A stretch of DNA of 60,963 bases, from positions 1 to 60,963 of IMG/VR virus record IMGVR_UViG_3300050004_000011; one strand, written 5' to 3'. The translations under genes were made by a program, and so were the position numbers. The notes beneath the pieces were generated by a model, which ran no database searches, was not told where the DNA came from, and worked only from the letters and a program-made list of their open reading frames with translations. Below are positions 1-60,963 of the stretch, piece after piece. This DNA is from a virus. Lineage: Duplodnaviria > Caudoviricetes. Numbering within the stretch: the first letter of the stretch is position 1; each line of letters opens with the position of its first letter.

Positions 1-11
1 GATTGATGGTG
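1..11. repeat. Terminal overlap GATTGATGGTG (copy at 60953-60963); circular contig
   Basis: Identical 11-mer at both ends and an ORF intact across the join. Confidence 0.85.
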
Positions 12-319
12 TGACCGAGAGCGCACCACCAGTAAGCGATCGCGCTCACGTTGGCGCCGCTGGTGTCGACCAGGGACGCGACGGGCACCTCGATGGGGTA
101 CCTCTGACCGGCTGCGAGCGGGATGGTGAGCGTGGTACCCTTCGCCGTGACCACCACAGCGGACTCGGCGGTCGCGCCGGCGTTGAACACGTCCACGAGT
201 TGAGCAGCGTGGTCGGGGCGGCCCACCACCGTCGTCAGGTCTGTGGTGGCGTAGTTGGCGGCGTAGGTCGTGCTGTAGTCTGCAGCGCGATTCCGGTTCA
301 CATCAGAAGGATTCTGCAC
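1..319 (-). CDS. Small putative virion protein spanning the circular junction (ends at stop 60942-60944)
   Basis: GTG at 319 opens a frame (VQNPSDVNR...WWCALGHTIN) that continues through the terminal overlap to PAP-stop, 3 nt before the ATG at 60938. Confidence 0.7.
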   Translation of the reverse strand, partial: MQNPSDVNRNRAADYSTTYAANYATTDLTTVVGRPDHAAQLVDVFNAGATAESAVVVTAKGTTLTIPLAAGQRYPIEVPVASLVDTSGANVSAIAYWWCALGHTIN

Positions 320-520
320 ACACTAGCATACCATGCGGAGCAACAACTGGCCACACGTGGCGCCACGCAAAACGACAACTCAAAGCGACAAGTGACGCCA
401 CCCCCGAAAACACGGCAAAAAACAACTGTCGTGTGCAGTGCTGTCGGAACCCCGCGTCACTTCAGAACAATTACGTTTCTTATTGACACGGGGAACCGAA
501 TGTGAAAATGACCGCACCGC

Positions 521-565
521 CCTCTCACGCCGGTAACACGGGTTCAATTCCCGTTGGGGTCACCA
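521..565 (+). other. attP core: 3' half of tRNA-Glu(CTC), anticodon loop to CCA
   Basis: CCTCTCACGCCGGTAACACGGGTTCAATTCCCGTTGGGGTCACCA has T-arm GGTTCAATTCC and a CCA end; no 5' half; lies 4 bp from the integrase stop. Confidence 0.85.
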
Positions 566-569
566 ATAA

Positions 570-1766
570 TTACGAGAGGTTGCAGGACGCGCCGGAATCC
601 AAATCGACAGTTTTCGTTGTCGGAATGGAATACTGGGCCAAAGCTGCCTCGAAATCCATTTCCGTTTCGTCCTGGGGCGCGGCCGGCAGCGCCGCCGGCA
701 GCGCGGCCTCGGGGATGTGGATCACGTCGGGGATGTGGTAGCGCTGGTGGGTGGACATGCTCTTGTGCCCGCTCGCGCGCATCGCCGTCTGTGCGTTCAG
801 GCCGCTGGCCGCCACCGCGGTTACGTAACTGCGCCGGAACGAGTAGAAGTCCGTCCGCTTCGTCTTGTCGGTGGCGTCGTGGAGCTCCGCGCGGGTGATG
901 CCTGCCTCGAGCAGCGCCTGGCGCAGATCGCGCGCGTAGGAGTGCTTCTGGAAGGGGAACACCAGACCACTGTCGGGCCTGCCCGCGTCGTCCCACCAGC
1001 CCCGCAGCGTGGCGGCTACGAGCTGCGGCAGGCCAAGGCGCTCGCGGGGGGCGGGCTCGGCGTCCTCGTCGGCGTGGTGCTCCGTCTTGGGCCTGGGGGC
1101 GTCAGCCCACATCCAGTTAGTTCGGTCCAGGTCCTCCCAGTCCCAGGCGTGCATGTCGCTGGGCCGCAGGCCGCCGAAGCACCTGCTCACGAGGGCCATG
1201 ATCGCGAGCTGCCGGCGCGGGCCGCGCACGTGGTGGGCGAAGAAGGCGGTGAACTCACTGTCGGTCAGCAGCACCCGCTTGCGGCGGTCGCGTGCAATTT
1301 TCGGGATGCGCACCCGCTCACCCTTCGCCGGGTTGTACTCGAGCACCTCGTCGCGCACGAGCTCGGCGAACACCTTGCTCATGTCCACGTGCAAATGCTT
1401 GACCGTGTCCAGCGCCAGGCCCGCGGCGCGCGCGGCCTCGAGCACGGCAGAGATCTGACCGCTCTTGATCGAAGTGACCGCAAGGTGACCCAGCACGGGC
1501 CAGGCGTACCTGCGCAGTCTGGAGAGGCGCTCATCCGCGGTGCGCATGCCGTCACGCTCGAGGACGGCGCAGACCCGCGTGCAGGCCTCGCGGAAGGACT
1601 CGGCGCCGGGCTCCGGTGTGGGGCCCCCGGCCACCAGTTCACGCATTCTGACCAGAGCCAGCCCCCGGTCGGTGGTGTGCAGCGGTATCAGCTTCCCACC
1701 CGCGATTCGTGCGGAAAACCCGCGCCCGGTGGGGACCAGTGTTCCAGTTCGTTTTCGTCCGGCCAT
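570..1766 (-). CDS. int: Tyrosine recombinase/integrase
   Basis: GLRPSD, YSFRR, GHKS..THQRY catalytic pattern; adjacent att site; start placed at MAGRKR. Confidence 0.9.
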   Translation of the reverse strand: MAGRKRTGTLVPTGRGFSARIAGGKLIPLHTTDRGLALVRMRELVAGGPTPEPGAESFREACTRVCAVLERDGMRTADERLSRLRRYAWPVLGHLAVTSIKSGQISAVLEAARAAGLALDTVKHLHVDMSKVFAELVRDEVLEYNPAKGERVRIPKIARDRRKRVLLTDSEFTAFFAHHVRGPRRQLAIMALVSRCFGGLRPSDMHAWDWEDLDRTNWMWADAPRPKTEHHADEDAEPAPRERLGLPQLVAATLRGWWDDAGRPDSGLVFPFQKHSYARDLRQALLEAGITRAELHDATDKTKRTDFYSFRRSYVTAVAASGLNAQTAMRASGHKSMSTHQRYHIPDVIHIPEAALPAALPAAPQDETEMDFEAALAQYSIPTTKTVDLDSGASCNLS

Positions 1767-1855: not shown

Positions 1856-2716
1856 ATGCATCTCATGACTCGCTCAGCAGCAACATCATCCGCACAACAC
1901 CGCGCCGTTCGTCAACCCTCCACCGTGTCCCAGCCGGCCCCCGCGCGCCAGGCGTTTCAGGTGAGTTTTGCCACGCTGGAAGAAGAAGCGGCGCACTACG
2001 ACCGACTGGCCGCTGATGCGCGCGCCCGCAAAGCCGAGCTCGAAGAGAAGGCGCGCCTGGAAGAGGAAGCACGTCTGGCCGAAGAGGCACGCAAAGCCGA
2101 AGAAGCACGCCTGGCGGCCGCCGAGGCCGAAGAAGCAAAGGAAGCCGAAATGATGCACACCACCAACGACAAGCAGAAGAAGTCTCGCTCCGCCAAAGCA
2201 AAGACCAAACTGGCCGCAGCCGAAAAGGAACGGCGCGAAGCCGCGAAGGCTGCGGCAGGGCAAAAAAAGGGCATGTTCACGCTGCGCAAGCAAATCAAGG
2301 CCGTTGGGATAACGGGACAGCGTCTCGAGAAACTGCTCTCAGAAATTCAATACATGCGGTCGGATGTGGTCGAAGCAGACGACGAGGAAGAGATCCCCAC
2401 CACTTACACAGGAACGGGTATGGGCGAAAGACTCGAAGAAATCATGGAGCTCGTGGACGAACTGGGCGTGATCTCGGCCCCCGAGGTCTCCAAGCGCGTG
2501 CTCGGCAAGGGTGGCAAAAAGTGGGAGGGCAACCCAGTTCGGCAGCAACTCATGAAGTTGGTGCGACAGGGACACCTGCAATCCGCGTCGTGCAAGGTCC
2601 CGCAAATGAGTGGCGGTATCGTCAAGCGCAGCCCCACCATCATCTACGCCCGCACCGACGCCGCACTGATGGCCTACAAGCTGAAAATGGAAGAAGATCG
2701 CAACCCCAAGCAGTGA
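1856..2716 (+). CDS. Ala/Glu/Lys-rich coiled-coil protein with C-terminal winged-HTH-like domain; possible regulator
   Basis: EEARLAEEARKAEE repeats; ISAPEVSKRV...VRQQLMKLVRQGHL resembles a wHTH; divergent from int. Confidence 0.5.
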   Translation: MHLMTRSAATSSAQHRAVRQPSTVSQPAPARQAFQVSFATLEEEAAHYDRLAADARARKAELEEKARLEEEARLAEEARKAEEARLAAAEAEEAKEAEMMHTTNDKQKKSRSAKAKTKLAAAEKERREAAKAAAGQKKGMFTLRKQIKAVGITGQRLEKLLSEIQYMRSDVVEADDEEEIPTTYTGTGMGERLEEIMELVDELGVISAPEVSKRVLGKGGKKWEGNPVRQQLMKLVRQGHLQSASCKVPQMSGGIVKRSPTIIYARTDAALMAYKLKMEEDRNPKQ

Positions 2717-2792: not shown

Positions 2793-4352
2793 TCACCGTC
2801 GGTTGGCGATCTTCGCCAGGTTCTCTCGGTACCGCCTCGATTTGTCCGCGAGGCGGTCCAGGGCCTGGGTGGTGGTGTCAACGTGATCGTCGTGGGTGAA
2901 CCGGGGGAACTTGATGTGCTCCTCCCTGACCACGTCGGCGCCGATGATGTACTCGATCTTGTCCACCTTGCGCGAGTCCCCGGGCGGGTACACCACCTGC
3001 CCTGACTCCCACTTCTCGGTGTGGACGTGGTAGCGCTCCTCCTTGGACCCCTGCGGCTCCACGCCCTTGATGCCGGGGAATTTTGATTGCATCTCCTCGA
3101 TGATCGCTGGACCGTTTGCCTTGAGCTCGATCAGCTTGATTTTTGCCCGGTGCCAGTGCGGGCGGGACTGCGCGAGCGTGAACTGCGCCTTGGACGCCAC
3201 GTAGTTCCAGTGCCCACCGACCCAGTCGATCAGACAGTACATCTCCGGGCGCCCCTCGAGCTTGCGCACGATGTAGTCATTTTGGGTGTTGGGCACGCGC
3301 GCCATGCGGTCAGCCAGGCTGCTGAAATACTCACGCACCTCGGCCAGGTCGCGGGTCACGCACCAGAGCTCGCCAGCCACCTTGCTGTGGCTCTCCTTGG
3401 TGCCCTTCGACGAGAAGTCCCACGACTGCACGAAGGTGCCCTTGGTGGGCGCGGAGATCCACTCGAGGCGCGTCCAGGACTCCTCCACGAAGCCGCCAGT
3501 GGCAGGCGTCGGGTCCTGCTGTAGTTGCGCCGAGGCCTCGTTCTTGAGCTTGATCTCCTGGGCGCGTACACGCTCCTCAGGGAACAGTTCCGGCCAGAGC
3601 AGTTCGCCCACTTCCTTGCGCGGGTCGCGAGCCCACATGCTGCGTTTCACCTGCCGTGCCGGCAGGACCAGGCTCTCGTAGCCCTCCGCGATGCACCGCC
3701 CCGCCAGGTCATTGCTGTGAACCCTTTGCATCACGACAACAATCCAGCGCTTAACGCGGGTCTGCAGGGTGCCATCAAACCATGCATCAACTTTCTTGAA
3801 TGCTGCCTCGCGCCCCAAAATTGCATCTTGAGGTTTGAGTGGATCGTCGATGATGATCCCGTCAACGTGACGTCCGGTTCCCTTCCCCTCTGGACTCGTA
3901 TTAAATCGAAATCCACCACGCGAATTTTTGAACTCGCGCAGAGCTGGCGCCTCCTTGCGCAGCTTCACGTACGGATAAGCAGTCTTGTATCGAGCATCGT
4001 TCAGGATGCTGATCATTTGCTCGCTTTGGTTGTTGAGCAGTGACTGGTCGAAGCTGCCCGCCAAAAAGCTGCAGCCCGGATCAAGTGTCCAGAACCATGC
4101 GGGCCAGAAGACGCCTACCATTTTGCTTTTGCTATGGCCGGGAGGAATGTTGATCACGAGGCGCTTGACTTCGCCCAACGTGACTGCGGTCAGATATTCG
4201 CAAATGGCCTCAAGATGCCAATTATCCAAAAAGTCTCGGGGGTCTGTGACGCCCCAGAACTGGCGGACAAATTCGTGTAAACCGCCCCGATCGATCAACT
4301 CCCGCATGATCAGGGCTTCTTCGGGGTCGAACTCGGTGTCGGCGTCAAGCAT
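2793..4352 (-). CDS. terL: Terminase large subunit
   Basis: INIPPGHSKS Walker A, IIIDDP Walker B, QSWDFS and HDDHVD nuclease motifs. Confidence 0.93.
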   Translation of the reverse strand: MLDADTEFDPEEALIMRELIDRGGLHEFVRQFWGVTDPRDFLDNWHLEAICEYLTAVTLGEVKRLVINIPPGHSKSKMVGVFWPAWFWTLDPGCSFLAGSFDQSLLNNQSEQMISILNDARYKTAYPYVKLRKEAPALREFKNSRGGFRFNTSPEGKGTGRHVDGIIIDDPLKPQDAILGREAAFKKVDAWFDGTLQTRVKRWIVVVMQRVHSNDLAGRCIAEGYESLVLPARQVKRSMWARDPRKEVGELLWPELFPEERVRAQEIKLKNEASAQLQQDPTPATGGFVEESWTRLEWISAPTKGTFVQSWDFSSKGTKESHSKVAGELWCVTRDLAEVREYFSSLADRMARVPNTQNDYIVRKLEGRPEMYCLIDWVGGHWNYVASKAQFTLAQSRPHWHRAKIKLIELKANGPAIIEEMQSKFPGIKGVEPQGSKEERYHVHTEKWESGQVVYPPGDSRKVDKIEYIIGADVVREEHIKFPRFTHDDHVDTTTQALDRLADKSRRYRENLAKIANRR

Positions 4353-4576: not shown

Positions 4577-5860
4577 TCACGCAGCCAAGGATATCGAGGC
4601 TTTGTGGAGGATGTTGCGAGCGGCGTTGATATCCGCGTCTTCGACGTGTCCGCAGCCAGGTGCTACGCACGTGTAGAGTTTGCCGTTCCTGGCTTCTTTC
4701 GCCACGTTGCCGCAATGCGAGCAGGTCTGGCTGGTATAGGCGCAATCCACCTCTCGCACGCGGTCACCAAGTCGCAGTTTGATGACATCCAGCGTCGCGT
4801 GCATGTAGGACAGCCCGCCTGTGTTGCTCTTGAAGTTCTTCGCAAGTTTCTCAACAGCAACGAACTCGTGGAGCTCAAGGCGCGGTAGTAATTCGGAGTG
4901 CAGCCAGTGTACCACGCGACGCTTGTCTGCTTGGTCGATGCGGGCAATCTTGCGGCGCGCACCAACGATCTGCTCAGGACAACGACTCAGGTCAGCCACC
5001 GACTGCAGGGCCGCTCGCGCGGTACGTGCCAGCGCAGTGCGGTCATTTTTCTTGGTGTAACCGTCACTGAGAGCCACCAGATCAGTCTGACCGACATCCA
5101 GCCCGACGCCAGGAGAAACAGGTGTAGTCAGTTTACGCGCAGGCACGATACACTTAACCGCGGCGTACCAACCGTCCGCACGCAAGTTGAGAGTCACACC
5201 CTGCACTTGCTTGCCTGGGATCGGTCGCCGAAGACGTCCCAGCAGAACCATCCCGTTCACCTTGATGCGCGCGTTGTACCAAGGCGCTCCTCGCCGCTCC
5301 CCGTAGAACCCTCCGGTTTCGACCAGAGGTGCGTTCCCCCACACCAGCGGGGCCGGGTCGTTTCTGCGCTTGTAGTTGGCGCGCTTGGTCCTCATCACAC
5401 GCTTTACCGTGTCGCGATACAACACCGCGTTGCCCAGACGACCGTAGATTGAGCGCAGGTCCTGGTACGAATCCTTGCGCCAATCTAGCTCCGGGCGACC
5501 TTTCACAGCGGCGTCGATCTGCTTGTAGTATTTCATCCACACACCCGACGCCAGCACGTCTTTGCAAGCACGCTTGTGCTCGCGCCAGAGCTCTTTGACC
5601 GCCAGTTTTTCTTCGTCAGTCGTTGGCGTCGGGGGGTTCGGAGGCTCTGGCATTACCGGTGCGTCGCCCACCAATTGCTCGCGTTTCGCACAGGCCTTGC
5701 GAGCGTTCTTGACGTCCTCACGCCCACGAACGATGTGGTTGGTGATGTTGCGCACCTCGTCTTGCAGGACGCGCAGGGTTGCGTGTGCTTCCGCGTCGGG
5801 GTAGAGACGGATAAGCTCGACACGTAGTTCGGTGTTCGGTGGTAGTATCAGTTTGTTCAT
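4577..5860 (-). CDS. Compact type V CRISPR effector (TnpB/Cas12f-like RuvC nuclease, 427 aa)
   Basis: N-terminal IRLYP; RuvC-I VGLDVG, RuvC-II VAVEKL, zinc finger TSQTCSHCG...CVAPGC, RuvC-III DADINAARNI; flanked by CRISPR repeats. Confidence 0.92.
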   Translation of the reverse strand: MNKLILPPNTELRVELIRLYPDAEAHATLRVLQDEVRNITNHIVRGREDVKNARKACAKREQLVGDAPVMPEPPNPPTPTTDEEKLAVKELWREHKRACKDVLASGVWMKYYKQIDAAVKGRPELDWRKDSYQDLRSIYGRLGNAVLYRDTVKRVMRTKRANYKRRNDPAPLVWGNAPLVETGGFYGERRGAPWYNARIKVNGMVLLGRLRRPIPGKQVQGVTLNLRADGWYAAVKCIVPARKLTTPVSPGVGLDVGQTDLVALSDGYTKKNDRTALARTARAALQSVADLSRCPEQIVGARRKIARIDQADKRRVVHWLHSELLPRLELHEFVAVEKLAKNFKSNTGGLSYMHATLDVIKLRLGDRVREVDCAYTSQTCSHCGNVAKEARNGKLYTCVAPGCGHVEDADINAARNILHKASISLAA

Positions 5861-5880: not shown

Positions 5881-5916
5881 GTTGCAGGTTAGAGGGTCTG
5901 CACACCCTGTGAATCA
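5881..5916 (-). CRISPR. Solo degenerate repeat upstream of the effector, followed by a 20-nt guide-like segment (5861-5880)
   Basis: 26/36 identical to the array repeat; stem AGGGT/ACCCT replaces AGGGC/GCCCT; GTGCAG loop and CTGCAAC end invariant. Confidence 0.85.
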
Positions 5917-7611
5917 AAGCCACAGGCGCCCACCCCTCATCGTCAAAATCGCTCGCTTGCCATTATGGTAGACAACGGTGTGCGAAACGCTCCACGAGCT
6001 CGGACCGTGTGCGTATGGCAGCCGCCTGTTGCACACCCCCGATGAGAACACGCCGTCGCGGATGCACGCCTTGTGGCTGTGCCCCTTCACGATGCGTGTG
6101 GCCATGCGCGAGTACGCCGCGTCGCTGCCGCGCGAGCCATCAGGGCCTCGATCGCCGTGGAGTCCGCACTCGACGGGGTGGTCCGGCGGCCCCACCACGA
6201 AGGACTCATCGCCGCCCAGGAACCGGGCCAGGCTTCCGACGCCATGCCGCTGCATCGCCCACTCCAGGAAGTGCCACCCCTGCCCCTCGCGCAGCGCGCG
6301 GACGCGCGCCAGCTGGGCCTCGAGGTAGAGCTCGGCGTTGGGCAGGTCGGTCTTATAATCCGCCTCGTCCAGCCAGCGCTCTCCGTGAACGTCGTGGTTG
6401 CTCGCCACCACGACTGTCTGGCAGAAGTCACGGTGGGCTAGGTGCAGCAGCGTTGCGGTCACTTTGAGCTCGGCCTCCACGGTGTCGACATCAGCGCCAC
6501 CGATGTGCTTGGCGAAGCGCGCCGCGAAGGACTTCACCTCGTGGTGGCTCCGGTTGCGAAATGAGAGCGTGTCGTGCCAGAGTTGCACTCGGGGCCGCAG
6601 GGTGTCGATCACGCTGTCGGTTCGCCCCCAGTTCAGAGCGCGGACCGCAGGATCAATCTCGCTCGCGTGTATGTCTCCCCAAGATATGGCTTCGACGCGG
6701 TGTCCGCGGGTCACCTGCCCGTCCGCCACGCGGAACGTCAGATCGTGGAACGCGCCGTCGTCGTCCGCGTTCAATTGCCGACACCACCAATTCTCCGAGA
6801 CCAGGTCGACCTCAACAATGAGAGCACCGAACTGGTGATGGAACTCCGCTTTGATGCCCTCTTTTTTGGCGATGTAATTTCGCTGGGTGACGGCGCCGGT
6901 CGTGAAATTCAGCTTGGGCGGGCGCTCACCGATGACCGGCACGCTCTCGAGCGCGATCTTGGCGTGCGGGAAGATGCCCGACGCCGGTCCCGAGTACGAC
7001 TCCAATCCCGATAGTGGGCGGACCGCGGTCGGCAGGATGTTCATTTCTGCGCACCACAGCAGGTCCGGCGCCAAACGCCACTGGCAACTACCGTGCTTCT
7101 GGGGGTCGTCGCAGATGTACTGCTGGATGGCTGGATCGTACCAGAGCCCCTCGTGGTCGCTGCTGCTCGCACGCCCTGCCTTGGTGGCCTTCGCGCCGTA
7201 CGCAGATTTGTTGTAGCTGAACCTAGACACCATGATGCGAGCACCAGTGGCCTCCGCGTACGCTTCCAGGTTTGCCAGGAACTCCGCGTGCACTGGCGTG
7301 TTGTTCTGCGCGCTGGTCAAGATGTAACGGGCCACCTCCGGGCGGTGCGCGCCGGTGCACAGGTCGTTGGGTTGCGGTGCGGGGACGTGCCCGTGCACTA
7401 TCGGGCCGCTGTCGGGGGCCGGTTGCGCGGCGGCGCGGGCGCGGGCCTGCACGGAACGCAAGCGTGACTGAAGTTTGGTGCGCTTCCAGCCGAGCGCCTG
7501 CGCAGCGGTGTTCTGACTGCCGTGCTCCACCAGGGCCTCGATGGCGGTGCGCTCGGTAGTGCTCATGGGGAGATCGAGCAGGCTGGCGTACGGGTTGATG
7601 GGTGCGGTCAT
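5914..7611 (-). CDS. HTH plus metallophosphoesterase-fold protein (T5 A1-like nuclease)
   Basis: ILTSAQNNTPVH, WGDIH, SNHD, HGD, GHSH motifs; N-terminal HTH; start at MTAPINP. Confidence 0.7.
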   Translation of the reverse strand: MTAPINPYASLLDLPMSTTERTAIEALVEHGSQNTAAQALGWKRTKLQSRLRSVQARARAAAQPAPDSGPIVHGHVPAPQPNDLCTGAHRPEVARYILTSAQNNTPVHAEFLANLEAYAEATGARIMVSRFSYNKSAYGAKATKAGRASSSDHEGLWYDPAIQQYICDDPQKHGSCQWRLAPDLLWCAEMNILPTAVRPLSGLESYSGPASGIFPHAKIALESVPVIGERPPKLNFTTGAVTQRNYIAKKEGIKAEFHHQFGALIVEVDLVSENWWCRQLNADDDGAFHDLTFRVADGQVTRGHRVEAISWGDIHASEIDPAVRALNWGRTDSVIDTLRPRVQLWHDTLSFRNRSHHEVKSFAARFAKHIGGADVDTVEAELKVTATLLHLAHRDFCQTVVVASNHDVHGERWLDEADYKTDLPNAELYLEAQLARVRALREGQGWHFLEWAMQRHGVGSLARFLGGDESFVVGPPDHPVECGLHGDRGPDGSRGSDAAYSRMATRIVKGHSHKACIRDGVFSSGVCNRRLPYAHGPSSWSVSHTVVYHNGKRAILTMRGGRLWL

Positions 7612-7847: not shown

Positions 7848-8245
7848 GACTTGGCCGCCAGTCGCACGCGGGCCGCGGCGGCGTCTCGGGCGGATCGGCG
7901 CGTCATCAGATCCACCACCCCGGCGGGAGGCGGAACGGCAGGACGATCCAGCAAGAATGTTTCGCCGGTTACAGGATTTCCCAGGGATACTATCGAGCTC
8001 CAAGGAAGCTCACAGAAGTATGGTTGGCCTCCGAAAGACAGCATGCAGGCAATGCGCCGCACGTTCACGTGCAGATTGGACATCGGCACAGGAGTATGGA
8101 AACCGATCTCCAGGTACAGGCGTTCGTCGTCAAGGAACTCGTCTGGCACGCGCACGTCCACGTGACGCGGGTCTAGGCAGATCAAAACGTTGCCATGATT
8201 GAGCATGTTCAGAAAGAATTGCGTTGGGGGCTGCGGTGCGGTCAT
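7844..8245 (-). CDS. SspB-like ClpXP adaptor protein
   Basis: LDPRHVDVRVP...LSFGGQPYFCELPWSSI resembles the SspB fold signature. Confidence 0.65.
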   Translation of the reverse strand: MTAPQPPTQFFLNMLNHGNVLICLDPRHVDVRVPDEFLDDERLYLEIGFHTPVPMSNLHVNVRRIACMLSFGGQPYFCELPWSSIVSLGNPVTGETFLLDRPAVPPPAGVVDLMTRRSARDAAAARVRLAAKS

Positions 8246-9273: not shown

Positions 9274-9522
9274 TCACTCCCCTCCCTCGGTGAGGTCACT
9301 CGGATCGCCGCGCCAGATGGGGGTACTCTCGTCCCCGGACGTGTGCTCACTGACTCGAAGAATGGTACCCTTCAGTAGTTTGACCCATGCGGTCAGATCG
9401 TGCAGCTCGATTGGGTCCACGTTGTCGTAGAGCTCCTCGGTGGCGGCCTCCACGAGCTCGCGGAAGGCCTCGGGGGTCAGCTGGGTGTGTCGGGTGCGGG
9501 GGTATCGGTTGGTGTTGCTCAT
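9274..9522 (-). CDS. Hypothetical protein directly downstream of a solo repeat
   Basis: ATG at 9522, 30 nt after the repeat. Confidence 0.55.
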   Translation of the reverse strand: MSNTNRYPRTRHTQLTPEAFRELVEAATEELYDNVDPIELHDLTAWVKLLKGTILRVSEHTSGDESTPIWRGDPSDLTEGGE

Positions 9523-9552: not shown

Positions 9553-9588
9553 GTTGCAGATTCTACGGCCTGCACGCCGTGTGGTCAT
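9553..9588 (-). CRISPR. Second solo repeat, ~3.7 kb from the effector, followed by guide-like ACCACACCTTCCAC
   Basis: 29/36 identical to the array repeat; compensatory stem ACGGC/GCCGT; intergenic. Confidence 0.88.
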
Positions 9589-9589
9589 T

Positions 9590-9901
9590 TCATCCAACAA
9601 CGTTGCTGAGGAACACGTTGTGATCGGGGTCGTAGGGTTGGGGGCTGTCTGCGTCTAGGATCGAGATGTCCGTCTCGATGTAATGAAAGGTGTGGTCAAA
9701 TCGATGGGTGATGGTGCGGGGCGGGCCGCCGCGATCGGGCCGCCGGTGGAACTCGGCCACGAACTGCCCGTTGCCGCCGACCCGGAAGTGGTCGAACAGA
9801 GCCCACTCACTCTCGGGCACGCTCTCGACCCACTTCATGATGGTGGGCACCAAGTCGGGGCGCCAGTTGCGAGCAAGTCCGATGATTGAATATGAGTACA
9901 A
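9590..9901 (-). CDS. Hypothetical protein containing the self-match of the solo-repeat guide
   Basis: ORF with AAAGGA RBS before a TTG start. Confidence 0.6.
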   Translation of the reverse strand: MYSYSIIGLARNWRPDLVPTIMKWVESVPESEWALFDHFRVGGNGQFVAEFHRRPDRGGPPRTITHRFDHTFHYIETDISILDADSPQPYDPDHNVFLSNVVG

Positions 9902-10000
9902 GGTGTCCTTTGGTGGTTGTTAACCGGGGCAACCCGCCCCCCTGAAACAATCCTGACACAGCAAAAGAAACTGACCACAACTTTCGGGAGGAAAGTTTCG

Positions 10001-39037: not shown

Positions 39038-39055
39038 GGTGGTGGTCCTGTGCGG

Positions 39056-50553: not shown

Positions 50554-50848
50554 AGATCAAGCATGACGTGGTCATTTTGATTGCGCAAGCAGATGCGGTC
50601 AATTTGTGCTACCTTGGAAGCTGGCGCGCATTTCGCACGCCAAGCACAGAAGGAACGACCGTGTACGGTATCAAACCGCCAGACCCAACCTACGTCAAAA
50701 TCAAGCGCCACCTGGACGCGATCGCTGGCATCCTACGCGAAGCTTCAGCCGAAGAAATCGACGCTTTCGAAGATTCGTTCTCGGACAATTCGGTGATCGG
50801 CTTCGCAATAAACGCTGTGCGTGACTACTCGAAGGCGGTTTCAGGTCG

Positions 50849-53155: not shown

Positions 53156-53440
53156 GGGCCCCCGTGTCTCAGGGTCCCTCCGCAGCGAGGGGCCCACCTC
53201 AGGGCCCGACCTAAATCCAGACAGTTGTTGGTGTATTCCTGGCTGGGTACCTGTCCCCCTGAGTATTTCTATTTATTCATAAGGAAGGTGGTAGCGCACA
53301 TACCCCCTCCCCCTGTTTTATAGGAGGTTGTGAGCTCGAACCAAAATCGAGGGCCCGGGGGGCCCAGCAAGCACTTTCAGGAGTACTATCGAGCAGTTAG
53401 CCTCAGGGACCCGGAGTTGGGTGGGCCCCCGAGAGGTGCC
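53153..53440. other. Putative replication origin
   Basis: About nine (CTC)AGGGNCCC-like repeats flanking an AT-rich core just after the primase-helicase. Confidence 0.5.
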
Positions 53441-54274
53441 CAGCCACCGGGCCAATTACCGAATATCCGTCAGCGAGCCGGACGTTTCCTGAGTTAAATC
53501 AGCACTGTAACGCCTCTGGCGAAAATATGGGGGATCAGCCGCGTGACCGGGACCCATTTTCCCAAAAATATCTGGGAAATACGCATACATGACTGCGAGC
53601 TCGCGCCGATCCGCACCGTGAGGCCACCCCCCAGGCCCGCCGTTCGCCTAGCACACATACGCGCACACTATCGGGCATGTCGTTGCGATAATCGGCCTGT
53701 CTAAATGGGCGCTTTCCTTAATGATATCATGCATGTGCACCGGCGTAATAGGCCGGTAACAGTGTCAACCCAGGGAGTGACCATACACTACACTACATGA
53801 CCATACAACACATGCACTGTCACACATATGCAACCCTGTGGTTGCGCATCCCATGATATAACACACTGTGTTAATTGGCCCATGACCCTATGCCCATATG
53901 TGGCCCTATGTGTACCAAGGTGGAATTAACACAGTGCACCATACCCAGTGTGCGCACTCACCCCACACCAGGTAGTGCACCGAAACGGAATTATGCCTCT
54001 CGAAAGAAAGTGACCTGACCAATTAAAAGTGACTACAGTCCTGCGTCGTGTTACCGTTCATCTAGGTATGAGCAGCAACAAGGCCCACGCAATCGAGACC
54101 GCAACCATGCCGCGCGACCCCCGCGTCCCCAGTGACATGCTCTCGCTCCACTGTGCCGCCACGCTGTCTTTCTGCCCCGTTCGCTCCGCTGAACGCCGCG
54201 CTCGCACTGACTATGTCGCGAGCTTGATTAGCGACGCGCTCGACGCCAAGGCGTGATAAAGTGACCGCACTGAA

Positions 54275-55159
54275 GTGACGATCCAATACCTGACCGGAGC
54301 GCACAACGCGGGTGTAGAGGGCATCGCCCACGACCGCAATATCGGCCTGCTAGTGCAGCCTGGCAATCGTTATGACTTGCAGGTGCACAACTATCCCGTG
54401 TGGGCGGGTGACAACGGCGCCTTTACCACTGTGAAGGGCGGCTTTTCTCCGGAGCGTTTCCGCACCATGCTGGCCCGCCCCAACTTGCTGGCGGCCCACG
54501 AAGGTCGTCTGGTTGAATACGTTGCCGAGGTGGAAGGCCGTCTCGAGCTCGAGACCTATGCGGCGCCCACGGTTGCCGCGGCGCATGCATTCGTGGCCGG
54601 CTGCGATGCTGCGCGCGTGTGTCATTCACCGTGCCTATTCGTGGTGGCGCCTGACGCGCTCATAGTGGGCGCGGACGGGCATGTCCGTGGTGATGCCGTG
54701 GCCACACTCGAGCGATTCGACGTGTGGGCGCCTGAGATCCGTGCCGCGGGCTTTCCCGTCGCACTCGTTGCACAGAACGGCCTCGAGCAATGGCTGGACT
54801 ATGTGTGGTGGGATATGGTCGATGTGTTGTTCCTCGGCGGCGGTCCCGATCCAGCGCTAGTCACCCGGGCCAACCGCAAGGGCGAGTGGAAGCTGTCCGA
54901 GCTCGCTCGAGAGTGCGTTGTCCGAGCTCAACTCGAGGGCAAGCCCACACACATGGGTCGCGTCAACTCCTACAAGCGAATGGCACTCGCACAGGCATGG
55001 GGCGTGGACACCGCGGACGGTACGTTCCTCGCGTTCGGCCCTAAGAAAAACCTACCACGGCTAGTAAAGTGGCTAGACAAGCTGAATCTGACCGCACCGC
55101 CCGCACTACTGCCGGGCGTGCCCGCAAACATCCACCAAAACATACAAAAGGCGTCATGA
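54275..55159 (+). CDS. Putative TGT/DpdA-like TIM-barrel protein
   Basis: GDNGAF, VAPD, LFLGG, HMGRVNS, DTADGT motifs. Confidence 0.5.
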   Translation: MTIQYLTGAHNAGVEGIAHDRNIGLLVQPGNRYDLQVHNYPVWAGDNGAFTTVKGGFSPERFRTMLARPNLLAAHEGRLVEYVAEVEGRLELETYAAPTVAAAHAFVAGCDAARVCHSPCLFVVAPDALIVGADGHVRGDAVATLERFDVWAPEIRAAGFPVALVAQNGLEQWLDYVWWDMVDVLFLGGGPDPALVTRANRKGEWKLSELARECVVRAQLEGKPTHMGRVNSYKRMALAQAWGVDTADGTFLAFGPKKNLPRLVKWLDKLNLTAPPALLPGVPANIHQNIQKAS

Positions 55160-55560
55160 AAGTATATCTCGCAGGGCCGATCAATGGCCGCACCGACAGT
55201 GAGTGCAAAGACTGGCGCGCGCTCGCCACAACCGAGCTCGGGGCGGACAACGTGTTTGACCCGATGGTGAGGGACTATCGGGGGCGCGAAGGCGAGCTCG
55301 GTATTGCCAAGGCGATCGTGGAACAGGACAAGGCAGACATCGATGCGAGCTCGGATGTGCTCGTATACTTCGACAGCCCGTCCGTGGGGACGGCTATGGA
55401 AATCCTGTACGCGTGGCAACGAGGTAAGCGCGTGTGGGTATGCAACGTGAGCGGCAAGGCACCATCGCCGTGGCTCGTGTATCACTCGCGGTGCATTCAG
55501 AGCTCGCTCGCGGACACCATCTCTGCAGTGCAGTGCTACCACGCCCGCACTGCAGTGTGA
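55156..55560 (+). CDS. Nucleoside 2-deoxyribosyltransferase-family protein
   Basis: KVYLAGP, D...ID, SVGTAMEI. Confidence 0.85.
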   Translation: MKVYLAGPINGRTDSECKDWRALATTELGADNVFDPMVRDYRGREGELGIAKAIVEQDKADIDASSDVLVYFDSPSVGTAMEILYAWQRGKRVWVCNVSGKAPSPWLVYHSRCIQSSLADTISAVQCYHARTAV

Positions 55561-56084
55561 ATCTGACCGCACCGTAGGAATCGACAACGGTCTGCGCTTT
55601 TACCTTCTTGTGAATCTGACCGCAGCCGTTCATAGTAAGTGAGGGCAGCGACGCTGACCTCCCCCGCCGGTGGCACCGGCTGAACCCCTCCCTTGGTGGC
55701 GATGATGACTGGGACAGGCAATTACGCGGCCAGCAAACAGCGATAGCGATACCGCGGCGAATCAAGCGGTAACCAAAGCCCGGCACCCCACAAGGTGACC
55801 GGGCATACGGCATTAGGAGACCCTGAAAATGGCCACATCACACCGCATGTCCGCTGCCCGCCGCTCGCTTGCCACGATCATCGCAGTTGCCGCACTACTC
55901 GCATGCGCTGGCATGGCCCGCGCTGATGTGTGCACGAAGGGCAAGCCGGTCATCACTACCGACAGTGCAGGCCGCACGATCATCACCACCCCCAAGGTGT
56001 GTGTGGTGACCCCCACCACGAAGTGACAGCCAGTTAGTTTTTTCGATCCCAAAACTGCAAAATAATTTCAGGAGACCAATTCCC

Positions 56085-56417
56085 ATGACCTCAGCAATCG
56101 AATCCGCCTCGTTTCAGACCTACGCCGCTTGGCTCGATGAACAACGCAACTTCGTGAGCTATGATGACAGCACCGAGCGCGCGGACTGGCTCGCGGACAA
56201 CGCGCCCGGTCACTTCCACGAACCCGATTACGCCGCGGCCGCGGCTGAACTAGGGCTCTCGTTTGACCCTGCCAACTTTGAGTACGACAGCAACGAGGGG
56301 CAGCAGATCACGGAATCGGCCGAGGCCGACATGACGAATACCGAACGCGGGTGGCTGCTGTCGTGGGAGTGGTCGGTCGACGAAAATGATACCGCTCCCG
56401 GCCCCAAGCGAAAGTGA
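56085..56417 (+). CDS. Acidic hypothetical protein
   Basis: AGGAG RBS. Confidence 0.6.
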   Translation: MTSAIESASFQTYAAWLDEQRNFVSYDDSTERADWLADNAPGHFHEPDYAAAAAELGLSFDPANFEYDSNEGQQITESAEADMTNTERGWLLSWEWSVDENDTAPGPKRK

Positions 56418-56472
56418 CCGCACCTGCTCAAGTCTGACCGCAACCACCCGTTCACATTTACAGGAGCCAATC

Positions 56473-56844
56473 ATGACCACCACGAAAAACACCACCTGCG
56501 CTGACCTCGTTCTGACTCACATCGTCGATGCCCGCGCCGGCAATCGGGCCGTACACTTCCCGCAATGGCTTGATGCACACGAAGCTGCCTGGCGCGCGCC
56601 GCGTGCGGGTGGTGAGCGCGCCATCAAGTCGCTGATCGACGGCTACGCCGCGCTCGCTGATGCATCCTTCTCCGGGTGCGGTATCCTGCTAGGCGATGAT
56701 GCGTTCTATTGTGACCATGCGGTGTCTCTCGTGGACGCCATGCGCGCAGCCCTGAACCTAGACTGTGGGCGACTGGACTGTGGTACGCTGGACCGACTCC
56801 TCTGCAGGCTGGCGGCCGCGAGTGGCGTCACCCTGGACGAGTAA
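56473..56844 (+). CDS. Hypothetical protein
   Basis: AGGAG RBS. Confidence 0.6.
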   Translation: MTTTKNTTCADLVLTHIVDARAGNRAVHFPQWLDAHEAAWRAPRAGGERAIKSLIDGYAALADASFSGCGILLGDDAFYCDHAVSLVDAMRAALNLDCGRLDCGTLDRLLCRLAAASGVTLDE

Positions 56845-56914
56845 TTCACCGACTCGCCCTACCGACCCGCCCGGCCTTGCGCCGATTGGCGGGTTTCGGG
56901 CGTTCGTGAGGACC

Positions 56915-57364
56915 GTGAATTGTCAGGTTTGCAGCAAAGTGATACCGGCAGGTACGCCTAAAAGACCGCGCAAAGTTTGCTCTATTGCTTGCCGATCTAA
57001 GCTTCCTAGCGGGAAGTGGATCCTACCTGACCGCCCCCTAACAGGTAAGGAACGTCGCGCAAGGTGTGCAGCAAAGCACCCTACTGCGATGACACGATAC
57101 AAGCGCAAGCATCGTTTGAAGCAAAAAGGTCTGACGGTTCAACAATTCTTAGACATGCTCGCGTTGCAAGATGGTAAGTGCTGTCTGTGTGAACACGTCC
57201 ACGTGGAAGGTGATGCACGAAAGTCGCTGGTTGTAGATCACTGTCATCGGTCTGGGTGCATTCGTGGACTCTTGTGCCACAGTTGCAATCGAGCAATCGG
57301 CTTGATGAAAGATGACTCCGAACGGTTGCGAAACGCTGCACAGTATTTGGAGATCTTCAAATGA
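56915..57364 (+). CDS. Endonuclease VII-type HNH homing endonuclease
   Basis: QDGKCCLC, VDHCH..G.IRGLLCHSCN; low GC. Confidence 0.88.
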   Translation: MNCQVCSKVIPAGTPKRPRKVCSIACRSKLPSGKWILPDRPLTGKERRARCAAKHPTAMTRYKRKHRLKQKGLTVQQFLDMLALQDGKCCLCEHVHVEGDARKSLVVDHCHRSGCIRGLLCHSCNRAIGLMKDDSERLRNAAQYLEIFK

Positions 57365-58664: not shown

Positions 58665-58932
58665 CCTCGGGCTCGGCCGCCGGCGGCAGCACAGTGGTGT
58701 TCGGTCCCTCAAGCCCAAACACCCAGGGCGGGACGGTGGGCGACCAGCGCGCGACCGAGAATGTGACGCTGGTGTGGCGTACGAGCTCGACCCACGCGCC
58801 GCATTTGCAGGTCACGCAGTAGGTGCCAGATATGTCGGTACCCTTGTCGGGGTCGTCAAGCGATCTCCTACAGTGGGGACAGATCGGCTGACCGATCCGG
58901 GGTGCGGGCAAATCAATGGGGGGTGGTGCCAT
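58597..58932 (-). CDS. Small zinc-finger protein
   Basis: CPHC...CKCG. Confidence 0.45.
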   Translation of the reverse strand: MAPPPIDLPAPRIGQPICPHCRRSLDDPDKGTDISGTYCVTCKCGAWVELVRHTSVTFSVARWSPTVPPWVFGLEGPNTTVLPPAAEPEEKIPQEDEKISPRNRKKFPWKR

Positions 58933-58985
58933 GTGACGGACTTGGTACCGACACAGGCCCGTGACAACCCCGACACGGATCGATT

Positions 58986-60149
58986 TCAGGCGTGCAACTG
59001 CACGTTCGTTCCACCAGGAACCAGCTTGATCCAACCAGAGCGTGTGGTGCTGACGCCCGTTAGTTGTGCGATGTCGGGCAAGTATTGCATGTTGAACACG
59101 CTGTACAGACCAGCGTCGTTAATGTTGTACGTGCTCACCTGGTTGCCGCCAATGACCGTGTGACTTGCTAGACCACTGGTGCGAATGGCGTCACCGGTGA
59201 GACCGGGGCCAAAGTAATTTTTCTCCACCGAGTTCATCTGAGTGAGGCCGGCAGTGCCTTCGATCCACACGCCGTGCCCGCGTTCGGTGGTGGCACCGAC
59301 CGGGTTGTTGATGATCTCGAGGTAGTTGTTCACCACGTCAGTGGAGCTCACGCGCGTGATTTTGATGCCAGCACGATCCAAAAGCACTAGCGGGCTCACC
59401 ACACCGTTGCCGTGCACCAAATTGCGCGTGACAGTGTTGTTGCGGGGGGCCAGCGCGTTGTCGACACTCATCAAGTGAATGCCGGCGTTAGCCCAATAAC
59501 TCATGTAGTTGTCGCTCACTAGATTGCCGGCGGGTGTGTGCAACAGGATACCAGTCTGGCTCGCGCCGATGCGACAGCGCACGATCTCGGTGTCGATGGG
59601 GCGTTGCAAATAGATGCCGTAGCCCTTGTTGAAATCCTCCGTCAGAATGTGGTGGAATGAGCATCGCACCACGCCCTGCAGGTTGGTGCCCATGATGATC
59701 CCGCTCTGACCAGAGGCGTTCGTGCCACGCAACTGGAAGTGGTGGAAGCTGCTGAACTCACCGGTAGTTGCTGAAGGGAACTCACCACGGATCGCCGCGC
59801 CCGAGCCCGAGTACTTCAGAATGCTCTGCTCACCACAGCCAAAGATCTCGACACGCTCATCGAGCTCGAGCGGAGTGGTGAAGTTGAATGTGCCCTTGGG
59901 AAAGTACAGTGCGCTGCGCGCAGCAAGCGCCACGGTGAGCGCAGCCTGAATGGCTACTGTCGAATCAACTGCTGGGTTGGTGCTCGCGTAGAACGGGCGA
60001 GCAGTAACATCGATCACGCCCCCGCCGTTGTCATCTCCGGGGGGCCCCGCAGGCCCCGCAGGGCCTCGAGGCCCTGGCACCCCGCCGCGGTTGATCTGAG
60101 GCGATGGCGCGTGCGTGGAGAACGTACGCATGTTGGGAGGTATGGGCAT
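58986..60149 (-). CDS. Tailspike/depolymerase with parallel beta-helix and short collagen-like linker
   Basis: GPRGPAGPAGPPG; DSTVAIQAAL..LYFPKGTF pectate-lyase-3-like start; Asn/Ile ladders. Confidence 0.8.
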   Translation of the reverse strand: MPIPPNMRTFSTHAPSPQINRGGVPGPRGPAGPAGPPGDDNGGGVIDVTARPFYASTNPAVDSTVAIQAALTVALAARSALYFPKGTFNFTTPLELDERVEIFGCGEQSILKYSGSGAAIRGEFPSATTGEFSSFHHFQLRGTNASGQSGIIMGTNLQGVVRCSFHHILTEDFNKGYGIYLQRPIDTEIVRCRIGASQTGILLHTPAGNLVSDNYMSYWANAGIHLMSVDNALAPRNNTVTRNLVHGNGVVSPLVLLDRAGIKITRVSSTDVVNNYLEIINNPVGATTERGHGVWIEGTAGLTQMNSVEKNYFGPGLTGDAIRTSGLASHTVIGGNQVSTYNINDAGLYSVFNMQYLPDIAQLTGVSTTRSGWIKLVPGGTNVQLHA

Positions 60150-60152
60150 TTT

Positions 60153-60938
60153 TCAGACGAGAGGTGCGGAGTTTTTAAAACCGATGCGGTCAGTTGCTGA
60201 CCAAATGCCTCGCACAGCCTCCGAGTATTTGACACCCGCAGAGATGAAAACGTCCCTCCCAGCGCGCCCGATGAATGGAAGCGTGGACAAGTTGCTGCGG
60301 CGATTGCCGAGCATGATGTCACCTGGTGCCGCCTGCATTGCTGCGGGGAAAGCACCGGGGGTACCTGCTTGGTCTGCGGGCGTCAGCGCGAGCTCGGTCA
60401 GATCCGCCGTGATGACGACCTTGTCTGCTTCGGCCGCCAGCGTATCAACTTCGAAGGTGAAGAACTTGGGGGTGGCCGTCACCACGTTGATGGCCGTGGC
60501 AGCGCGGCGCGCGACCAGCCCTGTAGCGTCGTTGTAAATGGCCAACCTGAGAGACTCGTCGGAGGCGATGGTGATCACCATCGATTCGGTCGCGGCCGGG
60601 TCGTTGCTTGCGCCAGGGCCGACACGGAACAGATAGTGCTGCACCGTGAGGTTATCGGCCTCAAGCCACAGACCGAGCGCGAATTTGGTCGTGTGGAAAC
60701 ACGCGGCGGGCAACAGCAGACAGTCGGTGTCGAACGTCATGCTGCCGTCGGCCGCGCCGTTCGGCTGGCGCACGCCTGTTGGTTGTGCTGCCGCCGTGCC
60801 GCCGTGCCGGTCGGCGATGGTGCTGATCGCACCTGTAGTCCCGTTGCGCAACCAGTACGTCGTGCGCGTCGCTGGGTTGAACCCCGTCGCCCCGCCCAGC
60901 AGCATGCGGTGGTGGCGGCTCAATAGTGTGCCGACCAT
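60153..60938 (-). CDS. Putative virion beta-sandwich (LamG/ConA-like) protein
   Basis: Beta-rich composition; co-transcribed with the tailspike. Confidence 0.5.
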   Translation of the reverse strand: MVGTLLSRHHRMLLGGATGFNPATRTTYWLRNGTTGAISTIADRHGGTAAAQPTGVRQPNGAADGSMTFDTDCLLLPAACFHTTKFALGLWLEADNLTVQHYLFRVGPGASNDPAATESMVITIASDESLRLAIYNDATGLVARRAATAINVVTATPKFFTFEVDTLAAEADKVVITADLTELALTPADQAGTPGAFPAAMQAAPGDIMLGNRRSNLSTLPFIGRAGRDVFISAGVKYSEAVRGIWSATDRIGFKNSAPLV

Positions 60939-60963
60939 GGATCAGGGTGCCGGATTGATGGTG

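Follow-up and report, generated by a model that had tools for sequence, protein, structure and literature searches.

An asymmetric, co-oriented DNA word across the genome of a soil myovirus: possible stoperator-like sites of a phage regulator

The 60,963-bp virus genome IMGVR_UViG_3300050004_000011 (Duplodnaviria; Caudoviricetes), which we have analysed at its full length and call the window, carries dozens of copies of a short word, TGACCGCA, that point in nearly all cases in the direction of the surrounding genes. What would a phage use such a word for, and what reads it? A sequence-only reading of this DNA had likened the copies to the oriented repressor 'stoperator' sites of mycobacteriophage L5. 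We have followed up this suggestion with shuffling controls, with the diverged relative G406 (an IMG/VR record of 60,601 bp), and with searches for a protein that could bind the word. The reading we prefer, at a probability of roughly 0.45, is that the copies are asymmetric operator or stoperator-like sites of a phage DNA-binding regulator, by analogy with the L5 system.

The word, its direction and its conservation

The exact word is found 41 times, 31 times on the minus and 10 times on the plus strand, while 100 dinucleotide shuffles contain 3.72 ± 1.66 copies (maximum 8). The first estimate by eye, about 35–40 copies against 2–3 expected, was therefore close, and all 24 sites named with it are exact cores, displaced by 1–4 nt because flanking letters had been counted in. 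TGACCGCA belongs to the top-enriched family of 8- and 10-mers of the genome, and its excess is ~11-fold over dinucleotide and order-3 expectations and 8-fold over synonymous-codon shuffles. AAWNTGACCGCA is present in 25 copies versus 0.03 in shuffles, or at ~410 per Mb. Although the 41 sites were chosen on the core alone, their flanks are conserved as well: A occupies −3 in 39/41 and A or T occupies −2 in 40/41, followed by a free base at −1 (A 14, C 12, G 10, T 5), which is the AAW-N prefix described earlier. On the 3′ side, C is found at +8 in 27 and at +9 in 28 of the 41. The G-to-A variant TGACCACA adds 10 cores, giving 51 TGACC(G/A)CA cores in all, that is, ~0.8 per kb. One-mismatch cores with the A-W flank number 19 (nine of them TGACCACA) against 4.5 (maximum 9) in simulations, and a weight matrix detects 73 sites at 9 bits or more where 10 order-3 Markov simulations give 4–14. 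The logo spans 14 bp and is not palindromic.

Could such a word simply arise from codon usage, from Met-Thr-Ala N-termini of a GC-rich genome, or from ATGA overlaps? The genome does offer the material, as ATGACC starts are common and the stop codon is TGA in 67, TAA in 11 and TAG in 2 of 80 genes. However, 200 codon-preserving shuffles of the window coding sequence give only 3.20 ± 1.75 sense copies (maximum 8) against 25 observed, and 1.39 antisense copies against 1 observed, so that both the enrichment and the strand bias persist; in the coding sequence of G406 the numbers are 15 sense copies versus 3.35 and five antisense copies versus 1.71. Inside genes the word is read in two reading frames, and it also stands in non-coding DNA, including intergenic DNA of G406 that cannot be aligned to the window. 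Together with the conserved flanks and the 8- and 11-fold excess, this excludes in effect a compositional or coding artefact, and the word is real. Since the copies use two frames, include intergenic ones and survive codon shuffling in excess, the signal lies at the nucleic-acid level, as had been claimed from the letters alone.

The direction of the word follows the genes. The minus strand carries nearly all genes from ~50.55 kb down to 2.8 kb, a plus-strand block at 50.85–58.8 kb holds primase/helicase, endonuclease VII and SNF2 helicase, and a small minus-strand block lies at 58.99–60.94 kb. Among the 51 cores, 48 are co-oriented with the local gene block. Their strand distribution, 40:11, tracks the genes: 39 minus-strand cores fall into the long minus-strand domain and one into the small block, and eight of the 11 plus-strand cores fall into the plus-strand block. 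Few exceptions had been noted, with one at ~1474 as the example, and there are three. The core at 1475–1482 (+) is antisense inside the integrase gene, near a near-copy TGACCGCT at 1456, and the G406 integrase gene also has a plus-strand copy. The core aaaaTGACCGCAcc at 509–516 (+) lies beyond the 3′ end of the integrase gene, in a flank that is probably non-coding; the sole open reading frame (ORF) there, 11–505, has a non-coding composition (GC3 0.58) and no orthologue. The third, a variant core at 9972–9979 (+), is intergenic and opposes its flanking genes. Weaker matrix sites keep to the domains too; among them are six on the plus strand from 348 to 2211, and others on the minus strand, at 58910 and 60192. 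Since the direction switches with every gene block, even with those of 2 kb, it follows transcription and not replication or packaging.

Thirty of the 51 cores lie outside or at the edge of ORFs, versus only ~16% of the genome that is non-coding (51,129 of 60,963 nt are called coding). In 10 the TGA of the motif is itself the stop codon of the upstream gene, 12 start 5–10 nt behind the first base of the stop codon (typically TGA-AAA-NTGACC), eight are otherwise intergenic, 20 are in a same-strand ORF according to crude gene calls, and one is antisense. The spacer between stop and word is squeezed (0–10 nt) and that behind the word is kept. At many junctions the next well-supported start follows 20–75 nt downstream; the word-to-start distance is 62 nt for the portal gene, 58 nt for the Mu-F-like gene (by Pfam alignment), 43 nt for sheath, 38 nt for tube, 53 nt for protease, 21 nt for the chaperone-like and 43 nt for the fibre gene. 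The sequence-only reading had held that many copies overlap start codons, and that so many genes begin with MTA(P) for this reason. The location at gene junctions stands, but at many of them the start seems to lie elsewhere: judged from the N-terminus of its counterpart in the relative, the phrog_1745 protein is conserved from the Met of 7566 on, and the 'MTAP' of 7611 lies before it. Gene finders probably pick the NTG inside the word, and many 'MTAP' starts are probably not real. For annotation, the word rather than its internal NTG marks gene junctions in this clade, and called 'MTAP' starts are suspect. We have also observed that Shine-Dalgarno sequences are weak or absent at many well-supported starts (portal, TerL, sheath), and that A-rich leaders are common.

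Homologues of the sheath protein at 60–76% identity are found on several metagenomic contigs of ~60 kb, one of which was labelled Pseudomonadota by its depositor. Two relatives were read for the word, namely G406 and the 6.2-kb fragment L204. G406 is syntenic with the window, although its genes are only 65–75% identical, and the two can be aligned over only 21,258 nt at ~65–83% identity; 45 orthologous protein pairs show 31–74% identity. The integrase gene keeps its neighbours but sits at opposite contig ends, left in the window and right in G406, which indicates that these two 'linear' records are circular permutations of one map. G406 carries the same word in 41 cores with the same polarity: 35 are co-oriented with the local genes, 31 on the minus strand in the minus-strand domain and four on the plus strand in the plus-strand block. 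The pattern read backwards, as a control, gives 1 and 0 matches, and L204 contains three forward and no reverse copies. In distant relatives (31–38% sheath identity) there are one and four copies in 56–57 kb. We have also looked at the enriched polar 8-mers of distant relatives (31–39% sheath identity), which turned out to be coding repeats or local arrays, with no analogous genome-wide word.

Among the 45 orthologous genes, an upstream site is present in both genomes for eight, in the window only for six, in G406 only for two, and in neither for 29. The tandem in front of the sheath gene stands at −57/−43 in the window and at −53/−42 in G406. Sites inside genes are not conserved in position, except at the 3′ end of the helicase gene (alignment column 531), while their number can be kept despite turnover: the orthologous 491-aa and 519-aa ORFs have three each, at different alignment columns. 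Judged from these sequences, the word appears to be under purifying selection and conserved in a clade of uncultured soil myoviruses.

Beyond this clade, searches have brought little. The GenBank phage collection gave no near relative (megablast of 8 kb; capsid tblastn), the tape-measure, TerL and phrog_1745 proteins gave distant matches only, and neither the capsid protein nor the queries P0003 and P0122 found a relative in IMG/VR. The transposase found none among bacterial genome contigs, and the capsid protein gave only 25–29% matches, in four of 401 sampled Pseudomonadota genomes. A metagenome scan returned seven loci and nothing new. A pattern of 15 specified bases matched 63 stretches of IMG/VR once each, none of them core-enriched. 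Two 8-mers of the word, searched in the full-text literature, matched primers or unrelated strings among the matches listed, from which its status in print as a motif cannot be stated; the word region has no Rfam match.

Promoter context, candidate regulator and rival explanations

Some copies coincide with promoter-like boxes. In front of the sheath gene the word is the −35 hexamer of a well-formed predicted sigma-70-type promoter, which reads TTGACC-17-TAACCT in the window and TTGACC-16-TATCCT in G406. The core here is 41459–41466 (−), 43 nt before the sheath ATG, and its partner is the −10-like box GCTAACCT at 41439–41446 (−). A variant core at 41473–41480 (−), 14 bp upstream and 6 nt behind a stop, completes the tandem, which is kept in G406 with 11-bp spacing. 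A predicted early leftward promoter at 50602–50574 (−), the first promoter-like site of the leftward array, likewise has the core (50594–50601) as its −35 hexamer (TTGACC-17-CAAAAT); a weak copy TGACCACG, scored at 50574 with 14.6 bits, abuts its −10 box, and the equivalent stretch of G406 contains two sites.

Besides the word, the window and G406 each contain 10 copies of a rarer element, GCTAnnCT, most of them sense-strand. Several copies have a T in front, which makes an extended −10-like TGCTAnnCT (reading TGCTAnCCT), and the element follows the word at the heads of late modules, i.e., sheath, portal, protease, baseplate and the gene after helicase. Window copies are at 41439–41446, 46151–46158, 12425–12432, 23339–23346, 32705–32712 and 35164–35171, and G406 copies (L226–L228) at 10974, 19375, 28411, 42403 and 47146. 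Two of these, both with the −10-like sequence GCTACCCT on the minus strand, have a weak copy of the word in front: that at 12425–12432 lies 8 nt before the portal ATG and is preceded by a weak copy CGACCACA (12444), and that at 32705–32712 is preceded at 3 nt by another CGACCACA (32723). The element probably belongs to real late promoters. On the other hand, most sites have no −10 box: TANNNT at 16–18 bp is found at 3/50 window sites and 1/32 G406 sites, where 0.39 and 0.17 are expected, and no column is conserved beyond +9. The gap between core and GCTA is 3–4, 11–12 or 22–26 nt, and at the portal junction it is 4 nt in the window versus 12 nt in G406. Because the position relative to the −10-like box varies in this way, a repressor-like reading fits better than an activator or a sigma factor, as repressors tolerate flexible positioning at promoters and the latter do not. 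In addition, six pairs of G406 cores are head to tail exactly 11 bp apart (5818/5829, 10994/11005, 18304/18315, 23188/23199, 42422/42433 and 48751/48762), which suggests binding to one face of duplex DNA.

We propose that (A)AW-N-TGACC(G/A)CA-CC may be the recognition site of one phage-encoded protein that binds double-stranded DNA and would act on the host RNA polymerase genome-wide and in an orientation-dependent manner. Copies over −35 or −10 boxes (the early leftward, sheath, portal, protease and helicase-3′ promoters) would be operators, and copies behind stops or inside genes, which point with transcription, would be roadblocks to read-through, as the 'stoperators' of cluster A phages are. 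With the protein bound, neither the 48-kb leftward array nor the rightward early block would be expressed, as might be the case in a lysogen, which we suggest because the phage has an integrase. A duplex-DNA-binding protein that interferes with RNA polymerase is suggested by the asymmetric 14-bp word, by the helical-turn tandems and by the variable placement of copies on −35 and −10 boxes, as well as by the many promoter-less, co-oriented copies and by the conservation in unalignable intergenic DNA. Copies upstream of −10-like boxes would be outside the transcripts that start there, and this argues for a signal in the duplex rather than in RNA.

As the binder, the sequence-only reading had named the protein encoded at 1856–2716 (+), and we regard it as the best candidate, a reasonable one and nothing more. 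Its gene adjoins the tyrosine integrase gene (570–1856, −), from which it diverges, and the 286-aa product has a predicted coiled coil (41–150) and a predicted C-terminal winged helix (~181–285). Weak co-oriented copies of the motif stand at 1816 and 2211, and the positional counterpart in G406 (571–1272, beside the integrase gene) has weak co-oriented sites upstream too. A search of 5.8 billion proteins found a single homologue, at 49% identity. This was the sole window protein folded; the AlphaFold2 model, from a three-sequence alignment, has a mean pLDDT of 68 and reaches 82–90 in the C-terminal domain. It shows a long helix pair (41–150), then a domain of the order H-b-H-H-b-b (H189–203, E205–207, H208–214, H226–238, E242–252, E255–265). 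With residues 181–285, VIA-align gives Z of 7.1–9.1 to winged helices of the ArsR/MarR/PadR type, and nearly all of the top 50 rows are winged-helix domains. The PDB sequence search with the whole protein returned only two irrelevant weak matches. For the product of the first gene of the leftward array (170 aa, with a basic and Cys/His-rich C-terminus), Atlas gave no usable match and only a poor model.

The following points weigh against the proposal. The candidate and its G406 counterpart are alike over just 44 residues within the C-terminal stretch (34%, pairwise E 8e-5) though the DNA word is identical, and the word might instead be bound by a different conserved protein of unknown function. 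By the tool's own scale, Z of 7–9 is 'middling', and Foldseek with the model found nothing at E ≤ 0.001 (E ≥ 9.6e-3; the top rows are RTP, PadR, MarR and AspA winged-helix proteins). Searches of 73 proteins against PHROGs (E ≤ 1e-5) and of 78 queries (50 + 28) against Pfam recognised no repressor, Cro, antirepressor or other lysogeny-control family; nor did these two databases reveal helix-turn-helix (HTH) or sigma families, even at E ≤ 1 for 28 small or unknown proteins. The integrase gene (PHROG E 1.6e-25; 49% identity to that of G406) is the sole evidence of a temperate lifestyle, which is thus presumed from sequence, and its Pfam matches are at threshold (27.3 and 26.9 bits); neither an immunity gene, by homology in PHROGs and Pfam, nor a prophage copy was found. 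As for the sites, 20/51 cores are inside ORFs, a larger share than reported for L5-type sites; the close pairs of the window are spaced by 14, 19–20 and 27 bp, not 11; and six of the 41 G406 cores are in the opposite orientation, namely a plus-strand core that runs antisense through the integrase gene, as one does in the window, and five others. Finally, a sense-strand signal directly behind stops is also what an RNA-level element would be expected to give.

Two other kinds of transcription or transcript signal should be weighed. The word might be a positive promoter element, an upstream box of middle or late promoters read by a phage activator, a sigma-appropriation factor, a sigma factor or a polymerase, so that each copy starts a leader of 20–70 nt. 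This accounts well for the sites 20–75 nt before many real starts, for the kept spacer after the word with the squeezed one before it, for the orientation, for the core at −35/−30 of three or four sigma-70-like promoters, and for the TANNNT boxes downstream, which cluster at 13–15, 21–22 and 31–36 nt. It does not account for the rarity of such boxes at 16–18 bp, the lack of information content downstream of +9, or a distance to the −10-like box that differs from site to site and from one genome to the other. At ten sites the TGA doubles as a stop codon in ATGA/GTGA overlaps, ~20 sites are deep in ORFs, the capsid site would fire into a hairpin and then, ~90 nt on, into the region's strongest intrinsic terminator (43205–43180), and PHROGs and Pfam yielded neither a sigma factor nor an RNA polymerase nor a MotA/AsiA-like family; we hold this explanation to be unlikely, though it deserves attention. 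Somewhat more doubtful still is a signal in RNA, such as an intercistronic processing site, the site of a translational regulator, or a nut/ops-like site for antitermination loading or pausing. The word is almost exclusively on the sense strand, 22/51 copies are at stops or 5–10 nt behind them, its NTG with an A-rich leader resembles a start region in a genome of weak Shine-Dalgarno use, and transcription would have to be processive over co-directional arrays as long as 48 kb. But the exact 11-bp head-to-tail pairs of G406 and the conserved copies that precede the −10 boxes at the sheath, portal and early promoters fit DNA better, all four bases occur where a start codon would have its first letter, no conserved secondary structure or Rfam match goes with the word, and PHROGs and Pfam show no NusG/RfaH-like, RegA-like or endoribonuclease family.

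It is quite improbable that the word is a polar DNA signal unrelated to transcription (Chi-like, uptake-like, for priming, nicking or orienting a translocase) that is merely parked at gene ends and N-termini. Its density, its spacing near the size of Okazaki fragments, and intragenic positions that turn over at a kept number would suit such a role, and its reverse complement (GGTGCGGTCA-N-WTT) resembles the uptake signal of ~2-Mb genomes of 39% GC. Yet the orientation switches per gene block, including the 2-kb blocks at 58.9–60.9 kb and 0.3–2.7 kb, and the distances to orthologous starts and promoter boxes are defined. The bacterial genomes sampled give no support either. Five genomes from five phyla-level groups have 1–15 copies of AAWNTGACCGCA in 4–8.6 Mb, and 395 of the 401 Pseudomonadota genomes have at most 20. 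The other six (G016, G184, G393, G363, G208 and G136; ~2 Mb each) have 86–296, equally on both strands; the five of them that were checked hold 1273–1573 copies of a 9-mer, which we take to be the Pasteurellaceae uptake-signal core, and three loci from them are 39% GC. The likeness consists of GTGCGGT, then CA and an A/T run, at a density of ~1 per kb. It is taken as coincidental because the 9-mer has no match in the window, GC differs by 24 points (the phage has 63%), and the uptake signals are equal on both strands whereas the phage word follows the genes. Against 185,579 species genomes, the 15-base pattern gave at least 120 single-match stretches, and among the matches listed none has more than three cores in up to 8 kb. 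The sequence-only reading would have fallen if the word were equally common in the host chromosome, and the bacterial genomes searched show no such frequency.

Sites and genes along the genome

A single public run, a soil metagenome stored as contigs and possibly the source, is listed as containing the DNA of the window, and no RNA run is listed. The record is of class 'linear' with a CheckV completeness of 100%, its GC content is 60–65%, and matches to PHROGs and Pfam identify a contractile-tail phage. From its start, the leftward array encodes a Dam-like methyltransferase, an SPFH protein, protease, major capsid and neck proteins; then sheath, tube, tape measure, baseplate, amidase, helicase, a split DNA polymerase and a dTMP-kinase-like protein; and at its end portal, the Mu-F-like protein, the phrog_1745 'DNA transfer' protein, a transposase and TerL. 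No tRNA gene was found in the window.

The cores described from here on are on the minus strand unless marked otherwise. In the last part of the leftward array, cores are inside the TerL ORF at 3305–3312 (without the A/W flank) and 4185–4192, inside the transposase ORF at 5038–5045 and inside the phrog_1745 ORF at 6454–6461. In the cores at 7603–7610 and 8237–8244 the TGA terminates the upstream ORF, and the phrog_1745 gene probably starts 44 nt after the first of them. A core at 9388–9395 is inside a small ORF, and a variant core at 9691–9698 is inside an ORF. The variant TGACCACA at 9580–9587 follows a stop by 5 nt and precedes ATG 9522 by 65 nt, and the orthologous junction of G406 has a site as well. 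With its TGA, the core at 10897–10904 provides the stop codon of the portal gene, and GTG 10846 of the Mu-F-like gene comes 58 nt further on; the TGA of the variant core at 12471–12478 is the stop before the portal gene, whose ATG 12416 follows at 62 nt; the orthologous junction in G406 has an 11-bp pair.

Of two further variant cores, 16562–16569 is in a GTGA stop/start overlap and lacks the A/W flank, and 16614–16621 is 51 nt before GTG 16570 of the dTMP-kinase-like gene. A core at 19268–19275 is inside an ORF, and those at 19466–19473, 21728–21735 and 22800–22807 are each 6 nt behind a stop, the second followed by a GC-rich hairpin and the third 26 nt before ATG 22781. At 22333–22340 the TGA is a stop, 59 nt before ATG 22281. 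The core at the 3′ end of the helicase gene (23384–23391) is upstream of GCTATCCT (23346). GC-rich hairpins at ~21700 and ~23340 (−), downstream of two motif copies, have the loop-side TAGTGATGCCGGGC in common. The 491-aa ORF has its three cores in frame, at 25718–25725, 26003–26010 and 26348–26355. An intergenic core at 27919–27926 is 31 nt before ATG 27895; 28501–28508 is 8 nt and 31450–31457 is 5 nt behind a stop, the latter with a site at the orthologous G406 junction; and 35382–35389 is inside an ORF.

In the structural module, the TGA at 39051–39058 is a stop, 21 nt before ATG 39037 of the tail assembly chaperone-like gene, and 40075–40082 stands between sheath and tube, 9 nt after the stop of the former and 38 nt from the ATG of the latter (40044). 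A variant core at 40811–40818 is inside the sheath ORF. The capsid site, 43292–43299, is 6 nt behind the major-capsid stop and upstream of the hairpin and terminator; the latter (43180–43205, −) consists of 11 G-C pairs and a T run, ~100 nt behind the major capsid gene, with the second hairpin preceding it. The protease ORF contains a core at 45770–45777, and 46185–46192, upstream of GCTACCCT (46158), is 10 nt behind a stop and 53 nt before the protease GTG 46139, at a junction where G406 has two sites. Near the start of the array, a variant core at 48016–48023 is intergenic, the TGA is the stop of the Dam-like methyltransferase ORF at 48063–48070 and another stop in the variant core at 48835–48842, and 49371–49378 marks the junction of a GIY-YIG gene and a 179-aa gene.

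On the plus strand, the primase/helicase ORF has a core near its 5′ end (50946–50953) and another inside (52974–52981). The core at 54262–54269 comes 8 nt after a stop, with GTG 54275 following at 13 nt, 55089–55096 is 67 nt before ATG 55156, 55564–55571 is 6 nt behind a stop, and 55617–55624 is intergenic. At 56415–56422 the TGA is a stop, 58 nt before ATG 56473, and a further core follows 20 bp downstream (56435–56442), 38 nt before the same ATG. The core of the small minus-strand block, 60185–60192 (−), is 43 nt before ATG 60149 of a beta-helix, fibre-like gene.

Several observations concern other parts of the genome. A stretch of ~0.9 kb without ORFs (53155–54029), 3′ of the primase/helicase gene, has A/T-rich patches, palindromes and short direct repeats, including TGACCATACA at 53778 and again 20 bp on, at 53798; this stretch may serve as an origin or in control. 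The phrog_1745 protein (5914–7611) is 50.7% identical to PhiJL001 gp05; the dTMP-kinase-like gene is at 16034–16570, a nucleoside 2-deoxyribosyltransferase-like gene at 55156–55560, and two cupin-like matches to a 'cysteine dioxygenase' PHROG at 12476–13027 and 16567–16965. Similar gene sets accompany thymidine hypermodification in other phages, and given this set the phage DNA may be modified. There are four genes of mobile-endonuclease type (4577–5860, 37738–38409, 49376–50080 and 56765–57364), namely the transposase between the TerL and phrog_1745 genes, which has no G406 counterpart, two GIY-YIG genes (one with NUMOD3) and one endonuclease VII. The similarity to DNA polymerase is divided over ORFs 17809–18801 and 19477–20988, with a 168-aa ORF (18974–19480) between them, and G406 is arranged alike (14144–15130 and 15498–17027).

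Comparison with known systems

Elements of the ops/nut type are also sense-strand, orientation-dependent signals in long operons. They occur once or twice per operon, in leaders, whereas the 11-bp tandems and the copies upstream of promoters described here do not fit such a pattern, and no NusG/RfaH-like or N/Q-like protein was recognised. The T7-type, T4 late and MotA-dependent middle promoters also place a co-oriented short word before many genes, and an A/T-rich prefix with a core at about −30 is what we see at the sheath promoter. Here, by contrast, most copies lack a −10 box at a fixed distance, many are at stop/start overlaps or deep in genes, and the phage polymerase, sigma factor or MotA/AsiA of such promoter sets was not found. 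In P1, a phage of a Gram-negative host, the one repressor C1 serves ~20 dispersed asymmetric operators, some of them paired. These are known at promoters only and have no known genome-wide co-orientation behind stops, and no C1-like protein was detected in the window.

The closest likeness is to the operator/stoperator system of cluster A mycobacteriophages. As far as the published account of the L5 gp71 and TipsytheTRex repressors describes them, these sites number more than 20, are asymmetric and ~13 bp long, and occupy promoters as well as short gaps between genes; there is a striking correlation between the way they point and transcription, and a reversed site loses repression (PMC9283540). 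According to a statement in the same account, genome-wide, orientation-dependent silencing by one repressor has been worked out so far only for this cluster (PMC9283540). Differences are evident. The window belongs to a contractile-tail soil phage whose host is probably non-actinobacterial. The monomeric repressor of cluster A combines an N-terminal HTH with a C-terminal Stoperator domain, and no such protein was detected with PHROGs or Pfam; our candidate is a predicted coiled-coil winged-helix protein, probably oligomeric, and shows no homology to the gp71-type family, so that descent from it was rejected. More of the sites are intragenic here, and the relative has the 11-bp tandem pairs. 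The comparison first drawn with L5 therefore holds as an analogy and not as common descent. As such it extends to all sequence-level hallmarks: dozens of asymmetric sites of ~13–14 bp, at (predicted) promoters and in intergenic spaces, co-oriented with transcription. An integrase gene is present as well.

One may go further and ask whether this clade of ~60-kb soil myoviruses has independently invented a transcription 'punctuation', in which a coiled-coil winged-helix protein, with no kinship to the mycobacteriophage repressors, would bind head to tail to ~50 co-oriented sites behind stops and on −35 boxes and form a polar barrier to initiation and read-through over the 48-kb array. We consider this specific version doubtful at present, though worth stating. 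If it is true, silencing of the stoperator type would be a convergent and general phage strategy and not a peculiarity of one actinophage cluster. Confirmation would also make polar roadblocks to RNA polymerase a recurrent way to quiet long co-directional arrays, and would offer a compact, direction-sensitive 14-bp transcription stop with its binding protein as a tool.

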